A DNA stretch of 64,000 nt from an uncultured Gemmataceae bacterium (lineage in GTDB: Bacteria; Planctomycetota; Planctomycetia; Gemmatales; Gemmataceae): positions 2,880,001-2,944,000 of the forward strand of contig CAVVPN010000003.1 in the NCBI GenBank assembly GCA_963750165.1, read 5' to 3'. Below the pieces are notes generated by a model that saw nothing but the letters and a program-made list of their open reading frames with translations, had not been told where the DNA came from and did no database searches. Both the position numbers and the translations under genes were made by a program. Each line of letters starts with the position of its first letter. Within the stretch, counting starts at the first letter, position 1. Of this stretch, positions 18,297 to 54,259 are shown in pieces.

Positions 18297-18379
18297 GATC
18301 CACAGATGACACAGATAACCCAGATAAAAACAAGTAATTCTTTTGTTTTTATCTGGGTTATCTGTGTTATCTGTGGATC
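18297..18379. repeat. Inverted-repeat element of the CCAC / 9-nt-periodic family
   Basis: GATCCACAGATGACACAGATAACCCAGATAAAAAC...GTTTTTATCTGGGTTATCTGTGTTATCTGTGGATC. Confidence 0.85.
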
Positions 18380-21772: not shown

Positions 21773-22591
21773 GTGACCGCACCACTGGCGAACTGCACCG
21801 CCGCCCTGGCCGAGGGCCGGCAACTGGAAGAACTCGCCGAGTTGCTGGCCCGCGAAGGCGCCACGGTCGTCCGCTGTCCGCTGCTGAGCATCCACGACAG
21901 CCCCGACACCGACACCGTGGTCGCCTGGCTGCGCGACCTGGCCGCCGACCGTTTCGCCTGGGCCGTATGGCTGACCGGCGAGGGCGTGCGACGGCTGCTG
22001 GGCTTCGCGGAGCGCGCCGCCCTGCGCGACGCGGTGCTGGCCGCGCTGGGCCGCGTCCGCTCCGTGACGCGCGGCCCCAAACCGGTGCGGGCGCTCAAGG
22101 AACTCGGCCTGACTCCGACCCTCGTCGCCGCGGCCCCGACCACCGAGGGCGTCATCGCCGCGCTGCGGAGCGAGCCGCTGCACGGCTTGCACGTCGGCGT
22201 ACAACTCTACAGCCCGGACAACCCGCCGCTGCTACAGTTCCTGCGCGACGCCGGCGCGACGCCGCATCCGGTGCTCCCCTACGTCTACGCCCCGGCTGCC
22301 GACGCCGACCGAGTCGGCGACCTGATCGTGCGCCTGGCCGACGGCGGCATCAACCTGCTCGTGTTCACCAGTTCGCCGCAGGTTGATCGACTGCTGGAGG
22401 TGGCGAAGGAACGCTGCCTGGAAGAGCACCTGCGGCAGGGGTTGGAGCGCGTCCGGGTGGCGTCCATTGGGCCGGTGCTGACGGAGCACTTGCGGCAGCT
22501 GGGCGTGCGCGTGGACGTGTGCCCCGAAACGGGCTTCGTGATGAAAAACCTGGTGCAACATATCAAACGACATTGGGAGGAGAGTCATTAG
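21773..22591 (+). CDS. hemD: Uroporphyrinogen-III synthase-like protein
   Basis: LTGEG, RGPKP, FTSSPQV, ASIGPV. Confidence 0.8.
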   Translation: MTAPLANCTAALAEGRQLEELAELLAREGATVVRCPLLSIHDSPDTDTVVAWLRDLAADRFAWAVWLTGEGVRRLLGFAERAALRDAVLAALGRVRSVTRGPKPVRALKELGLTPTLVAAAPTTEGVIAALRSEPLHGLHVGVQLYSPDNPPLLQFLRDAGATPHPVLPYVYAPAADADRVGDLIVRLADGGINLLVFTSSPQVDRLLEVAKERCLEEHLRQGLERVRVASIGPVLTEHLRQLGVRVDVCPETGFVMKNLVQHIKRHWEESH

Positions 22592-22695
22592 TCAATAGTC
22601 ATTAGTCATTAGTTATCCGGGTCGCAGTCTCAAACAAAACTTTCACCCGCGACAGGGATCCGGATAACTAATGACTAATGACTATTGACTGATGA
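22586..22695. repeat. Inverted pair of heptamer tandem arrays (TCATTAG)n/(CTAATGA)n
   Basis: Read directly from the sequence. Confidence 0.8.
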
Positions 22696-22704
22696 CCAAT
22701 CAAA

Positions 22705-26496: not shown

Positions 26497-26733
26497 CCTG
26501 CATGACACGCATGACACGCATGACACGCATGACACAGATGACGCATGACGCATGACACTTCAGACACTCGATGCTTGTCCCTTTGTGTCCCTTTGTCCCT
26601 TTCGGCTTTAAGTCCTGGACATCAACCACTTGGACGCCAAAGGGACAAAGGGACATGGGCGAGTGTCTGAAGTGTCATGCGTCATGCGTCATCTGTGTCA
26701 TGCGTGTCATGCGTGTCATGCGTGTCATGCAGG
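26497..26733. repeat. 74-bp perfect inverted repeat built of CATGACACG units, enclosing inverted TGTCCCTT repeats
   Basis: Arms 26497-26570 and 26660-26733. Confidence 0.92.
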
Positions 26734-36832: not shown

Positions 36833-37366
36833 TTATTCGGAAACGGGTTGCTCCTGGTTTGCTTTTGCCTCTGCTTCAGGGGCGTTCCAGAAGCCGCGAG
36901 CCCATTCCTTCTGGACCCAACGGTCGGCGTGATTCCAGTTGCCAAGGTGTTGAATGAGCAACCGCCAGTCGAGGCCGATGCTATCTCGGGCAATCAAGGT
37001 GGTGGCTTGGCGGAGCTTGTAAGACAGTTCCTCGCCGTCCGTGTCGAGCAGGTCGATAAAGCGCTTCTCCCGTTGCTGCCTTTCCTCCAGGGTCAGTCCA
37101 GCCCCGAATGCCGCGCCAAAGTTCACCTGTTCGGTTTGGCGACAGTCGCCCTTCACCCAGGCGAATAGCCCAGCGGCGAGGACGGAATCGTCGAGCGCGA
37201 AATCTGGCACTCGGCGAAACAGCCAACCGACACGGCCGAGGGTGTAGTCCAGGGGCCGTTCGAGTCCACGGCGGAGGTGGGCCAACGCGGCCCGGTTCGG
37301 GTTGTCTGGGTTGGCAAGTTCGGTCAAATCATTGACCAACTCGATGTCCCACTTTGGAGCGCTCAT
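36833..37366 (-). CDS. casB: Cse2 (Cas11/CasB)
   Basis: ALAHLRRG, EKRFIDLL, LDW..L, WARGF; position in the operon. Confidence 0.9.
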   Translation of the reverse strand: MSAPKWDIELVNDLTELANPDNPNRAALAHLRRGLERPLDYTLGRVGWLFRRVPDFALDDSVLAAGLFAWVKGDCRQTEQVNFGAAFGAGLTLEERQQREKRFIDLLDTDGEELSYKLRQATTLIARDSIGLDWRLLIQHLGNWNHADRWVQKEWARGFWNAPEAEAKANQEQPVSE

Positions 37367-38925
37367 GCGACACCTTCTTTCTCTCGATTCGGGATGCGGT
37401 TGTCGTTGCGAATCTTCTTCAGACGGGAAAACAGCAGTCCCCGGCCGGCGTTGACGGCTTTGAGGTCGCGGCCGCCGTCGATTCGACCGATGGAATCGTT
37501 GAAGGCGTCCTTGGCGGTAGGGTGAAGAGTGTCCCAGTACCAGCTGTTGACGCACGCCCCAAGGTCCGCCCCGTCGGCGGCGAGGGTGACCAACAGTTCG
37601 CGGAACGGCCGCTCCAACCGAGACCAGTAGAGACGGTCTGGGGCAAAGGAATCGACCACGGCGCTGACGCGGTCTTTGTCCGGATTCATCTCAGCGCTGC
37701 CGGTTAACCAATTCGCCGCCGCCGCCCAGGCCGCTTTTCGTAGCGCGTCTTTGACGGCCTCCGCAAGTTCAAGCGAATGTTTAAGTGACTCCACCAGTTC
37801 TGGACGGTCGAGGTACGCGAGCGGCAACGGCAGGGTTTCGTGCCGCCAGAAATTGACCTTGGCCTTGTCCGTGCAAAGACCGAAGACGGACACGCGGTAG
37901 CGGGCCGCGCGAGGCAACACTTCTTTCAACTCGAAATGCGCCAGTGTGTGCAGCGTGGTCGGCCCCTTGAACTGGTCGGCCTCCGCAAATTGAAAGAGGG
38001 TCGCACTATCGCGCCACAGGTCGCGGTTCTCGCTCAGCCGGACAGGCCGGTCACCCTCTTCCTTGCTGCGTGAGTACGCGATCATCGGGTCGTAGAACCC
38101 AGCCGGGACTTCGAGCTTCCGCCCCTGGGCGTACGACACCCGGCGGACCATCACTTTCCCGTTAACTTCTTCGGGGTGCAACCGGAGTGTCCGACTCTGC
38201 CACGTCAGGTAGTCAAGGTAGCCACGCGGGCGGCCCGGTTGTTTGTGTGGTTCGGTTGGAGGCCGCTCCCACACTGGGACATCATCGGGCAAACTGGCAA
38301 CGGGGTCTTTGTTAGAGAAGACTGTGAGGTTCAACCACAAGGTCTCGAACAGGGTGTCACCCCGCGCGAGAACCACCGCTCCGGAGACGAGTGGGGCGTG
38401 CGTAGTGTTGCCGGTGTCGCTCTTGCCGCCTCCCACCGCGAACGCTTGCTCGGCAACCACAACTCGGGCGGCGCGGGCCGGGGTCAAGGCCGGTGGAGGG
38501 TCATCGGTCGTGTGGTCGAACAGGGCAGCGTTGTTGCCACGGGACAATTCTTGAGCCAGCCGGTTGATTCCACTCGGCTCTTTGGTGGTGAACCCCGCTC
38601 GTTGGAAGAACGGGTATTTCTCATGGAACAAATCGAACCGATCAGCCCACTCAGCGAAGTAGGTGTTCACGCGGTTGGCATCGAACATTCCAGCCTGCCG
38701 GGTGGCAACCCGGTCTGCCGACTTCCTCGGTCCCTGGTAACAACGGTGCAAGATTGCAAGGAGGAGTCGGTGCAGCGCGACAGTAACCAGAGGTGACTCG
38801 TCGCGGATTTCGGTAATCGTGTGCGCCTGAACCAGCACATCGTGGAGGCTGTACTCGACCGCCCTACCGTCGCGGAAGAGACATAGAATGACAGGTTCCC
38901 TTGCGAGATTAAATGACACTGCCAC
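37363..38925 (-). CDS. casA: Cas8e (Cse1/CasA)
   Basis: SFNLAREP, RLLLAILH, FDLF..YPFFQ, LFDH, GDTLFETL.LNL, DYLTWQSR; GTG start with a purine-rich RBS. Confidence 0.93.
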   Translation of the reverse strand: MAVSFNLAREPVILCLFRDGRAVEYSLHDVLVQAHTITEIRDESPLVTVALHRLLLAILHRCYQGPRKSADRVATRQAGMFDANRVNTYFAEWADRFDLFHEKYPFFQRAGFTTKEPSGINRLAQELSRGNNAALFDHTTDDPPPALTPARAARVVVAEQAFAVGGGKSDTGNTTHAPLVSGAVVLARGDTLFETLWLNLTVFSNKDPVASLPDDVPVWERPPTEPHKQPGRPRGYLDYLTWQSRTLRLHPEEVNGKVMVRRVSYAQGRKLEVPAGFYDPMIAYSRSKEEGDRPVRLSENRDLWRDSATLFQFAEADQFKGPTTLHTLAHFELKEVLPRAARYRVSVFGLCTDKAKVNFWRHETLPLPLAYLDRPELVESLKHSLELAEAVKDALRKAAWAAAANWLTGSAEMNPDKDRVSAVVDSFAPDRLYWSRLERPFRELLVTLAADGADLGACVNSWYWDTLHPTAKDAFNDSIGRIDGGRDLKAVNAGRGLLFSRLKKIRNDNRIPNREKEGVA

Positions 38926-39008
38926 GCTGGCACCCCTTCCTGTCGGTGGTGTTGTCCAGATTGCGTTGAAATAGCAAGAATCCAGCAAGGCGATCCACTT
39001 GCCGGGTC

Positions 39009-39100
39009 GAGGACGCCCCCACACACGTGGGGAAGTTGAAAGGTCGGGGGTCAGAACCGCCCGTTACTCACGGTTCACCCCCACAACACGTGGGGAAACA
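39009..39100 (-). ncRNA. Degenerate one-spacer mini-CRISPR (CreA/CreR-like regulatory guide)
   Basis: Pseudo-repeats 39071-39100 (intact GTGAACCG handle and stem) and 39009-39037 (stem kept); 33-nt spacer 39038-39070. Confidence 0.85.
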
Positions 39101-39128
39101 AAAAACGTGGGGGAGTCAGAAGGGTCAA

Positions 39129-39335
39129 TCAGCGGCCCAGTCGCGGTAGCGCTCCGCGTTTGCGGGCATTCGCCAGCAACCGCCAGAACTCAGCCTGCGT
39201 CAGGACAGCACCGGTGCTGCGCTGCACCTCCTCCCAAAGCCACTCGAACTCCTCCGTGTAAGGCAGCTGGTCTGCCGCCATTCCCTGACGCTGGTAGCAT
39301 TCGGCCAACACCGATAGCAGAGCCGTTCGGTCCAT
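39129..39335 (-). CDS. 68-aa helical protein of unknown function (candidate CRISPR-repressed toxin or regulator)
   Basis: AGGAGGTG RBS 5 nt before the ATG; dedicated promoter upstream. Confidence 0.85.
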   Translation of the reverse strand: MDRTALLSVLAECYQRQGMAADQLPYTEEFEWLWEEVQRSTGAVLTQAEFWRLLANARKRGALPRLGR

Positions 39336-39365
39336 AAATTCACCTCCTTCCGGCTGCTAAACCGA

Positions 39366-39394
39366 ATCTTAGGCAGCAGGCTCTGCCATGTCAA
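39366..39394 (-). promoter_or_regulatory. Sigma70 promoter TTGACA-N17-TAAGAT
   Basis: -35 at 39394-39389, -10 at 39371-39366. Confidence 0.85.
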
Positions 39395-39418
39395 ACGTCT
39401 CTACCACCCGTCACTCAT

Positions 39419-39420
<2 letters not shown>
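39385..39420 (-). promoter_or_regulatory. Predicted Cascade binding site of the mini-array guide (PAM AAA)
   Basis: AAA-TGAGTGACGGGTGGT versus guide TGAGTAACGGGCGGT. Confidence 0.8.
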
Positions 39421-42176
<2,756 letters not shown>

Positions 42177-43157
42177 TTATTCGTAAACTTCCCAACCACG
42201 CCGAAATTCGTCGCGCACCTGTTCGCGCAGCTCCGCCGGTTCCAGCACCTCACATTCCGGTCCGTACCCCATCACCCAGCGCCGCACTTCCAGCAAATGG
42301 CTCACCGTCAGCGTCAATTCCAGGCTGCCGTCGCGCCGCTCCTTGATGACCTGGCTCGGGTGCCACTCGCGCAACTTCACGTACCGCGCCGCTTCTCCGG
42401 TGAAGCGCAACCGTACGCGCTGCGGCCCGGCGTCGCCACGCATCGACCGAAAGCTCGCGTCCAGGTAGTCGCCAATGCGGAAGTCCGCCGGCCGCTCAAA
42501 GCGCTCACCCGTCTCGCGCAGGGAGCGAATCCGCGCCGGCACGAACATGCGCACCTCCTCCCGCAGGTGGCAAAACGCGACCAGATACCACTCGCCTTGC
42601 ACGGACGTCAGGTGGTACGGATCGACGGTGCGGCGGCACTCCTCGTCGCGCAACGCGCTCCAGTACAGCAGCTCCAACCGCCGGCCCTCGCGCACCGCCC
42701 GCATCAGCTGCCGGAAGCAGCGCACGGCGCCGGCGTCCGCCTGGGGGCTGCGGAACGAGACGGTCTCGCCCAGGTGCGACAGATCGACCGTCACCTCGTC
42801 CGGCAGCTGAGCCGTCAGTTTGCGGAAGGTGGTCGCCAGGTCCGCGGCGTAGGGGGTGCCGTGGTAGGTCTGCATCAGGCGTTCGGCCAGAAAGAGCGCC
42901 ACCAGTTCGCCCTCGCTGAGGCGCAACAGCGGCAAGGCGTAATCCGGCAGGCTGTAGTAATAGCCATGCCGGCGGGCGTCGTATTCCAGCGGCGCACCCA
43001 GCGAGTCGCGGAGGAACTCCAGGTCGCGCAGGACAGTCCGACGGTTGACTTCCAGTTCGCCGGCAAGCGTGCGGGTATTGGGGTAGCCGCCAGCGCGGAT
43101 GCACCGATCCACGGCCACCAGGCGGCGCAGCGGGGGACGAGAAGTTCGTTCCATCAT
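42177..43157 (-). CDS. HTH-WYL-WCX transcriptional regulator
   Basis: LAGELEVNRRTVLRDL, VDPYHL, WYLVAFC, WVMGYG..EVLEP.ELR. Confidence 0.95.
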   Translation of the reverse strand: MMERTSRPPLRRLVAVDRCIRAGGYPNTRTLAGELEVNRRTVLRDLEFLRDSLGAPLEYDARRHGYYYSLPDYALPLLRLSEGELVALFLAERLMQTYHGTPYAADLATTFRKLTAQLPDEVTVDLSHLGETVSFRSPQADAGAVRCFRQLMRAVREGRRLELLYWSALRDEECRRTVDPYHLTSVQGEWYLVAFCHLREEVRMFVPARIRSLRETGERFERPADFRIGDYLDASFRSMRGDAGPQRVRLRFTGEAARYVKLREWHPSQVIKERRDGSLELTLTVSHLLEVRRWVMGYGPECEVLEPAELREQVRDEFRRGWEVYE

Positions 43158-43199
43158 GGTGGGCTACCAGCGAAGGACGGCCATTCAACAACTTTAGAG

Positions 43200-43234
43200 A
43201 GTATATTCAAGGGGGTGCGACATTGCCTGTCATA
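43200..43234 (-). promoter_or_regulatory. Putative WYL operator palindrome and -10 box
   Basis: TGCGACA-N5-TGTCATA at 43216-43234; TATACT on the minus strand at 43205-43200. Confidence 0.5.
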
Positions 43235-43287
43235 TGCGAAAAGCAATTCTTGAGGTTTACTTCTTGCCTGGCCTCTGCGCGGCTTAC

Positions 43288-43617
43288 TCACGTCTTCTTG
43301 CGTGGACGCTCCATCTCCAGCACGAACGTCCCGGCTTTGAGCGTGTCGCCGCCCTGGTTCCAGGCGGCCGCGTTCGGCCAGACGATCAGCGTCAGCCGCC
43401 CGGCCTTCAGCGTGCATGTGCAGGGCAGCGTGTTTCCCTTGCCCTGCACGTCGAGGCGCCCGCGTTTGGCGTCGAGTACCGCCCTGCCCGTGGTCTCGGT
43501 CTCGCTCAGTGGCGTCTGAAGTGTGAAGTTACCGACCTCCAACTTCAGATGCCAGTGCGAGTCCTCGGCGGGATGTCCACCGTGCCCTTGGCCGTCAGGA
43601 GCTTTACGGCGACCCAC
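43288..43617 (-). pseudogene. Probable fragment of a small beta-rich protein
   Basis: Protein-like C-terminal half, no good start. Confidence 0.3.
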
Positions 43618-54151: not shown

Positions 54152-54259
54152 TCAGAAGTCAGAAGTCAGAGGTCAGAAGTCAGAAGTCAGAAAACAGCGC
54201 CAAGCCGCAAGCAGCAGAAAAGATAACCTGACCTCTGACTTCTGACTTCTGACCTCTGA
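54152..54259. repeat. Inverted pair of heptamer tandem arrays (TCAGARG)n/(CYTCTGA)n
   Basis: Read directly from the sequence. Confidence 0.85.

Follow-up and report, generated by a model that had tools for sequence, protein, structure and literature searches.

What can a degenerate fragment of a CRISPR array be doing between cas3 and cas8e of a CRISPR-Cas system that is complete and has a long array of its own? The question is raised by a stretch of 64,000 nucleotides (nt) from an uncultured Gemmataceae bacterium of the Planctomycetota (GenBank assembly GCA_963750165.1, contig CAVVPN010000003.1, positions 2,880,001 to 2,944,000), which is referred to here as the window. Its minus strand encodes a complete type I-E system (cas3, cas8e/cse1, cse2, cas7, cas5, cas6e, cas1e and cas2e, assigned with NCBIfam), and the gap between the first two of these genes holds a gene for a protein of 68 amino acids (aa) and the fragment in question, a mini-CRISPR. 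Judging from the sequence, the mini-CRISPR probably yields a guide resembling a CRISPR RNA (crRNA) that would park Cascade where cas3 ends, over the -35 box of a predicted promoter, and so give negative feedback. The element is probably a CreR/CreA-type crRNA-like regulator of a type I-E system. The processing of the RNA, the binding of Cascade, the repression and the continuation of the transcript into cas8e-cas2 are steps that we infer.

The mini-array and its match at the end of cas3

Along the minus strand, the stop codon of cas3 is followed by the target, a promoter, a ribosome-binding site (RBS), the 68-aa open reading frame (ORF), a half-repeat, the repeat-like unit R1, the spacer, the repeat-like unit R2, a hairpin and cas8e. 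The features are as follows.

39419-42149, minus strand: cas3, in three frames in the assembly (40566-42149, 40129-40569 and 39419-40132)
39418-39420, minus strand: position of the protospacer-adjacent motif (PAM), AAA, overlapping the cas3 stop codon TAA (39421-39419)
39385-39417, minus strand: target (protospacer-like site), with the seed-matching part at 39417-39403; 13/13 in the seed, 21/33 overall
39366-39394, minus strand: predicted sigma-70-type promoter from a consensus scan, TTGACA (39394-39389), 17 nt, TAAGAT (39371-39366)
39129-39335, minus strand: 68-aa ORF (P0001), a conserved protein modelled as three helices by AlphaFold2, with the RBS AAGGAGGTG at 39349-39341
39106-39118, minus strand: half-repeat remnant (CTGACTCCCCCACG-like), then T6, just upstream of R1; read from the sequence, it resembles the 5' half of the canonical repeat
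39071-39099, minus strand: R1 (psi-R1), repeat-like unit GTTTCCCCACGTGTTGTGGGGGTGAACCG, with intact stem and exact 5' handle
39038-39070, minus strand: psi-S, the 33-nt spacer-like guide segment, of a length within the range of the canonical array
39009-39037, minus strand: R2 (psi-R2), repeat-like unit AACTTCCCCACGTGTGTGGGGGCGTCCTC, with the hairpin kept and the 3' eight bases degenerate
38982-39005, minus strand: terminator-like hairpin between the mini-array and cas8e
37363-38925, minus strand: cas8e (cse1, NCBIfam), with the likely start GTG at 38925 chosen by alignment with two homologous loci, L004 and L005
27135-32961, minus strand: canonical CRISPR array with about 96 repeats, from which the repeat consensus was taken

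The canonical array provides the standard for the two repeat-like units. Its repeat is CTGCTCCCCACGAGCGTGGGGGTGAACCG, which a strict pattern finds in 74 copies together with 18 GTGC-loop variants (92), and a looser pattern finds 96 times; its spacers measure 32 nt in 62 cases and 33 nt in 21. R1 keeps the CCCCAC/GTGGGG stem of this repeat and, at 39078-39071, the exact 8-nt 5' handle GTGAACCG, and it is the sole solitary stem-plus-handle copy in the genome outside the canonical array. The initial annotation had described two degenerate repeats around one 33-nt spacer between cas3 and cas8e, which holds base for base, and an upstream repeat with intact stem and exact handle, which agrees with the consensus of the 96-repeat array.

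The Cas6e endonuclease of type I-E systems cuts at the 3' base of each repeat hairpin. Given cleavage at that point, R1 and R2 carry exactly the parts that a crRNA needs, and the mature RNA is predicted to span 39078-39017 (62 nt), with the hairpin part of R2 (39037-39017) serving as the 3' handle. Each unit forms a hairpin when folded singly. The RNA fold of the whole 131-nt element is no better than that of shuffled sequences (z = -0.93), as is expected for repeated hairpins, and a search of Rfam returned no match at E <= 1 within 38700-39700. A search for sequencing runs containing 38850-39550 listed no RNA run, and one DNA run with 4% of its sequence words. An ordinary immune CRISPR array can be ruled out: the repeats are degenerate, and the single spacer matches its own locus only, and there only in the seed.

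The site that the spacer matches lies immediately beyond the end of cas3. Guide positions 1-15 agree with the target except at 6 and 12, and the distal agreements are scattered over positions 19-21, 26-28, 30 and 33. Target and guide are on the same strand, with the PAM side next to guide position 1. This alignment to 39417-39385 after AAA, with mismatches within positions 1-15 at exactly 6 and 12, had been claimed from the sequence beforehand and was reproduced base for base. Cascade flips out every sixth guide base. The seed score used here covers positions 1-15 minus 6 and 12, i.e., the 13 positions that Cascade reads, with the 15-position boundary set after the data had been seen. By this score, the only 13/13 sites in the 9.62-Mb genome are the target and the spacer itself (uniform expectation 0.29), and ten sites reach 12/13. 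Within the window, the seed pattern with N at 6 and 12 occurs twice, in the spacer and in the target, and it occurs in none of 100 window shuffles. When the spacer was shuffled 2000 times, the 480 nt upstream contained no 13/13 match to any version on either strand, and one or two versions reached 12/13. The spacer-target match is far beyond chance.

Covariation of guide and target in homologous loci

A search of metagenome contigs returned the loci L003 to L006, of which L004 and L005 have readable context and were compared with the window. L006 is a weak partial match and was left out, as was L003, whose contig ends, after an insertion, before any target or mini-array is reached. Among genome contigs only two weak partial matches were found, both in Roseomonas (L001 and L002), and viral contigs yielded no homologous locus. 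The insertion in L003 (255-1820) is a DDE_5 transposase element with the terminal inverted repeats GGGTTTTACAG / CTGTAAAACCC. It stands directly after the homolog of the 68-aa ORF, in the place where the mini-array would be expected, and the contig ends just past it.

L004 and L005 have the same order of features as the window (cas3 end, target, 68-aa ORF, mini-array, cas8e), and their spacers differ. In the three-way alignment, the GTGGGGGTGAACCG of R1 is invariant and the hairpin of R2 is conserved; the spacer and the target region are not. Handle and stem are kept in psi-R1 and the hairpin only in psi-R2, in L004 and L005 as in the window. In all three loci, the target lies just past the cas3 stop codon, 300-333 nt upstream of the R1 stem. 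The scores of each spacer are as follows.

Window spacer: own upstream site 13/13, PAM AAA; upstream regions of the other loci 7-9/13
L004 spacer: own upstream site 13/13, PAM AAG; upstream regions of the other loci 7-9/13
L005 spacer: own upstream site 12/13, PAM AAT; upstream regions of the other loci 7-9/13

The spacers of any two loci differ at 8-9 of their first 15 positions, and each pair of loci has 7 compensated positions, where each of the two nevertheless agrees with its own target. Within positions 1-15, the five mismatches fall at 6 and 12 in the window, at 6 in L004 and at 12 and 15 in L005. Expressed in cells of the comparison, 4/6 at the flipped-out positions 6 and 12 are mismatched versus 1/39 elsewhere (Fisher p = 4.8e-4). 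Beyond position 15, the agreement drops to 8, 4 and 6 of 18 positions (window, L004 and L005), where about 4.5 would be expected. The first two bases of the PAM are AA in all three loci. Conserved spacer-promoter complementarity in homologous loci had been set beforehand, in the initial annotation, as the test that could refute the proposal, and both L004 and L005 showed it. On comparative grounds, the pattern is the signature of selection for Cascade-type, seed-limited pairing without a full R-loop. The chance-level complementarity past position 15 implies that the R-loop would stay partial and that Cas3 would not be licensed.

Could the element nevertheless be an inert relic, i.e., a fragment of a decayed array whose spacer resembles the DNA upstream by accident or through past self-acquisition? 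The degeneracy of R2 and the half-repeat remnant upstream of R1 speak for such an origin; that remnant is absent from L004 and L005, where R1 begins about 10 nt past the stop codon of the ORF. Against it stands the selectivity of the conservation, with the handle and both hairpins kept and the rest free to change, as well as the covariation of spacer and target in three loci and the concentration of mismatches at positions 6 and 12. A relic would not hold a seed-only match while the spacers themselves diverge. This explanation is considered highly improbable.

Under the regulatory reading, the locus offers a clean natural example of Cascade-guided self-repression. Across the three loci, drift is almost confined to guide positions 6 and 12 and to those past 15, which would be an evolutionary read-out of the way in which Cascade reads a guide.

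From the predicted promoter to a proposed feedback on the operon

The predicted promoter, TTGACA-17-TAAGAT, agrees with the consensus at 10/12 positions and is the sole promoter-like site in 38800-39600 (mean of 0.1 in shuffled sequences). Its -35 box falls inside the 33-nt target footprint, so that the earlier claim of a footprint over the box (within 39385-39417) stands. Counted from the first target base, the 68-aa ORF starts 82 nt downstream; its start is about 30 nt past the -10 box.

A sequence of events can be proposed from this arrangement. The promoter at 39394-39366 would drive a transcript with the 68-aa ORF first and the mini-CRISPR after it, which would probably continue through cas8e-cse2-cas7-cas5-cas6e-cas1-cas2. 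Cas6e would cut both hairpins and release an RNA of about 62 nt, in which GUGAACCG is followed by the 33-nt guide and a hairpin of 21 nt. Once it has taken up this RNA, Cascade would recognise the AA-type PAM at the end of cas3 and pair over guide positions 1-15, with positions 6 and 12 flipped out and unread. The R-loop would remain partial, Cas3 would not be licensed, and the bound complex across the -35 box would block RNA polymerase and probably also read-through from cas3. Feedback of this kind would be negative: when less Cascade is free, owing to competing crRNAs or to an anti-CRISPR attack, more transcription would follow.

A variant of this proposal, which is rather unlikely, shifts the point of action: Cascade at the 3' end of cas3 would act as a roadblock that mainly stops read-through from orf87-WYL-cas3, and not local initiation. 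It is favoured by the position of the target directly after the cas3 stop codon in 3/3 loci, by the co-directional arrangement of cas3 and the Cascade genes, by the place of the paired seed, which does not cover the -35 box but is found 9-23 nt upstream, and by the consensus scan of L004 and L005, which found no promoter in either. The strong consensus promoter inside the footprint in the window argues against it, as do the published I-E and I-F cases, which act at promoters. Roadblock and promoter occlusion are not mutually exclusive.

Two of these observations, the negative promoter scan of L004 and L005 and the offset of the paired seed, also weigh against promoter occlusion with feedback on the operon. 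Occlusion is a step that we infer because only the unpaired distal part of the footprint covers the -35 box. Further points stand on the same side. The terminator-like hairpin at 39005-38982 sits between the guide and cas8e and could uncouple the cas genes from the targeted promoter; the same scan did not find such a hairpin in L004 or L005. No separate promoter for the mini-array was found in 38800-39600 by the consensus scan, which is weak evidence, and the guide would thus be made from the very promoter that it represses. The PAMs AAA (window) and AAT (L005) differ from the canonical AAG of type I-E. The covariation comes from only three loci, and indel errors in the assembly make single-base details, such as the 5-nt loop of R1, uncertain.

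Regulation of this type is known from other bacteria. In Salmonella enterica, according to the preprint that describes it, the degenerate mini-CRISPR CreR represses PcasA of the type I-E system together with Cascade; it shares 15 nt of identity with a site next to AAG, and repression is relieved by more crRNA and by AcrIE8 (bioRxiv 10.1101/2023.03.10.532045). As far as that account goes, the likeness to the window is close. Both have a degenerate two-repeat mini-CRISPR inside the type I-E locus, with the 8-nt 5' handle in psi-R1 and the 3' hairpin in psi-R2, and PAM-proximal identity, over some 15 nt, with a site near the casA (cas8e) promoter, and for both an autorepression by Cascade that senses crRNA load and anti-CRISPR proteins has been proposed. 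They differ in that the Salmonella match runs without a break over 15 nt and adjoins AAG, some 140 bp upstream of casA, whereas the window has 13/15 next to AAA. In the window, unlike the Salmonella locus as described, the targeted promoter and the guide are separated by the conserved gene for the 68-aa protein, and the guide follows its own target, downstream in the same transcript. The repeat and spacer sequences are unrelated, and the host lineages differ.

According to a survey by Shmakov et al., approximately 19% of bacterial I-E loci have mini-arrays between cas3 and cas8 whose targets lie in the cas8 promoter (bioRxiv 10.1101/2023.03.03.530964). The same source, like Liu et al., names AAG as the canonical I-E PAM (bioRxiv 10.1101/2023.03.03.530964, 10.1101/2023.03.10.532045); it reports tolerance of a mismatch at position 6 for I-F1, and cargo under mini-array control mainly in I-D, in the form of toxin-antitoxin pairs and regulators (bioRxiv 10.1101/2023.03.03.530964). 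The window shares with these mini-arrays the position in the locus, the two-repeat anatomy, the better repeat next to the seed and a spacer that matches the region of the cas8 promoter in part, with a PAM. There, the E. coli example has its target downstream of the mini-array; in the window it is upstream. The 68-aa family was not seen in the survey as far as it was available, and its supplementary tables could list such loci.

Autorepression, as the initial annotation had read the locus, is thus supported by the covariation and the unique match. The novelty that it implied does not stand: the mechanism is not new, because CreR of the Salmonella I-E system and the cas3-cas8 mini-arrays have already been published, and the locus is a further case of published CreR self-regulation. 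With it, the CreR class reaches a lineage that is remote from the enterobacterial model. Phage mimics of such crRNA-like regulatory RNAs have been described in later work, as far as that work was available; no viral match to handle plus seed, as would be expected of a phage mimic of the guide (Cracr), was found.

The 68-aa protein gene and the surrounding locus

The distinctive part of the locus is the conserved gene for the 68-aa protein between the targeted promoter and the guide. It has a strong RBS (AAGGAGGTG) and 25 protein homologs at 56-85% identity, nearly all metagenomic. Between pairs of the three loci, 17-30 of 62-63 codons differ by synonymous changes only, and between L004 and L005 there are 30 synonymous versus 9 amino-acid-changing codon differences. 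The ORF can be regarded as a real gene because so many of the differences between loci are synonymous.

For the protein, no family in NCBIfam, Pfam, PADLOC or PHROGs reached the threshold. DUF7874 gave weak matches in 12/26 family members, the best at E = 0.0086, which is below the threshold, and no mention of DUF7874 was found in the literature. The AlphaFold2 model has three helices at a predicted local distance difference test score (pLDDT) of 78.7. Foldseek found no match to it at E <= 1 in the PDB; the best entries (E >= 1.9) are helix-turn-helix, winged-helix or homeodomain-like domains and can serve as a lead only, as can the nearest clusters in a protein atlas, which are unnamed and mostly from Planctomycetota. 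A profile search gave 602 representative proteins at E <= 0.001 that share a module of about 60 aa. Many of them have two tandem copies of this module, and in others it is fused to AXE1 (acetyl-xylan) esterases, AAA_14-DUF4143 ATPases, DinB-like proteins, argininosuccinate lyase (ArgH), glyoxalase or Mrr_N. The neighbours of distant stand-alone homologs were uninformative. By sequence similarity, the 68-aa protein is most readily described as a single copy of a promiscuous small module.

The gene and the mini-array occur together in 3/3 loci with readable context. The close, cas-linked family of the 68-aa protein was found in 0/60 relatives. Of 400 genomes sampled from the phylum, 10 others carry cas8e, and none of these has a close relative of the ORF. 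In 8 of these 10 genomes, a long open frame, not matched to cas3 by a search, ends at most 17 nt from cas8e, which leaves no room for the cassette. A scan of the 10 I-E genomes for the mini-array likewise found none, using a gapless repeat search that would miss the R1 and R2 of the window itself. ORF and mini-array look like an inserted cassette because they are missing from relatives and from the other sampled I-E loci.

These observations bear on another explanation, held as a tentative minority view, in which the 68-aa protein is the main regulated product and the cas genes are secondary. As in CrePA or CreTA, the protein would be a toxin or abortive-infection effector that Cascade and the guide keep silent and that is released when Cascade is lost or inhibited by an anti-CRISPR protein. 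Such a safeguard and cas autorepression are compatible. The ORF comes first behind the targeted promoter, has a strong RBS and lies adjacent to the guide, and it travels with the mini-array as a cassette in all three readable loci and is missing, cassette and all, from the other sampled I-E loci. In addition, the layout parallels CrePA of the Acinetobacter baylyi I-F system as its preprint presents it (bioRxiv 10.1101/2024.01.05.574328), and the ORF, like CreP, is a single copy of a domain that is found elsewhere in larger proteins.

The comparison with CrePA can be taken further on the basis of the available accounts. CreP of A. baylyi ADP1 is a 103-aa KilA-C-type protein with demonstrated toxicity (bioRxiv 10.1101/2024.01.05.574328; PMC12737573). 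In both systems, the space from cas3 to the first effector gene (cas3-csy1 in I-F) holds a gene for a small single-domain protein together with a crRNA-like guide, and the target of the guide abuts the -35 box of the promoter of the protein gene. The proteins differ (KilA-C and 103 aa versus 68 aa without a KilA match), as do the types (I-F versus I-E). Homology of the 68-aa protein to CreP was excluded, with no KilA-type match in Pfam, PADLOC or PHROGs. In addition, creA lies upstream of its target and has its own predicted promoter. CreTA of type I-B haloarchaea, as far as it is described, is also similar, in that Cascade, directed by the RNA of a degenerate mini-CRISPR, represses a neighbouring promoter by pairing limited to the seed and does not cleave. 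It differs in its toxin, CreT, an RNA that acts by sequestering a rare tRNA, whereas the gene in the window is protein-coding and drifts synonymously; no tandem rare-codon motif was seen in the 68-aa ORF by eye.

Several of these points count against the safeguard. The 68-aa protein matches neither a KilA-type nor any other toxin family, the fusion of its module, in many cases in tandem, to ordinary enzymes points to a benign role in binding, and for the guide no promoter was found that would correspond to that of creA. It is a possibility, although a doubtful one, that the locus is a type I-E counterpart of CrePA in which the single-copy module acts as a CRISPR-repressed toxin or dominant-negative binder and, within one self-contained transcript, the same guide combines the roles of CreR and CreA. 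In such a counterpart, which we would put forward only cautiously, the effector would be released on inhibition or loss of Cascade, and the guide would also throttle the Cascade operon. Cas autorepression in the manner of CreR remains the preferred explanation. In either case, a conserved small protein that accompanies the guide in every readable locus deserves to be flagged. If it is a CRISPR-repressed effector, it would provide a second protein family for the CrePA concept and the first in type I-E; otherwise, the locus adds one more ordinary case to a mechanism that is already published.

Behind cas8e, the genes cse2, cas7, cas5, cas6e, cas1 and cas2 extend to 33060. One regulator gene lies directly upstream of cas3.

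42177-43157, minus strand: WYL-domain regulator (HTH_11, WYL and WCX domains), which also matches the PADLOC models of cas-associated WYL proteins

This regulator is likely to be a second, protein-based layer of cas regulation. An 87-aa ORF without known family precedes and overlaps its gene (42177-43417, minus strand). In the canonical array, the 74 GAGC-loop repeats lie on the leader-proximal side and the 18 GTGC-loop repeats at the distal end, and the leader-proximal spacer measures 41 nt, compared with the usual 32-33. No full-length match of any spacer of this array was found elsewhere in the genome, and no viral protospacers were found for the 3 of about 95 spacers that were tried, so that neither source yielded a PAM for this system.

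The division of cas3 into three frames should be read with the quality of the assembly in mind. The frame changes are located in two G+C-rich runs, one near 40590 and one near 40150, and the homology to the intact cas3 of L005 continues across both. Translationally coupled genes were considered and rejected since the homology crosses both junctions in shifted frames; the 4-nt overlaps between the cas3 ORFs are coincidental and show no sign of translational coupling. Elsewhere in the genome, rpoC (G000 C12:312568-321531) is likewise split into shifted-frame pieces, with its 3' part (profile positions 908-1146) present twice, about 4.7 kb apart; rpoB is intact. The assembly is likely to contain indel and duplication errors, and the frameshifts of cas3 may be artefacts. 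Decay of cas3 should not be inferred, because the essential rpoC is split in the same way.

A last observation, taken from the tandem-repeat table only, concerns paired blocks of short tandem repeats that face each other at 18301-18375, 22583-22700, 26500-26730 and 54152-54259. In 2/4 places they form exact reverse-complement pairs: three copies of CACAGATAA with three of TTATCTGTG, and seven copies of GCATGACAC with seven of GTGTCATGC.

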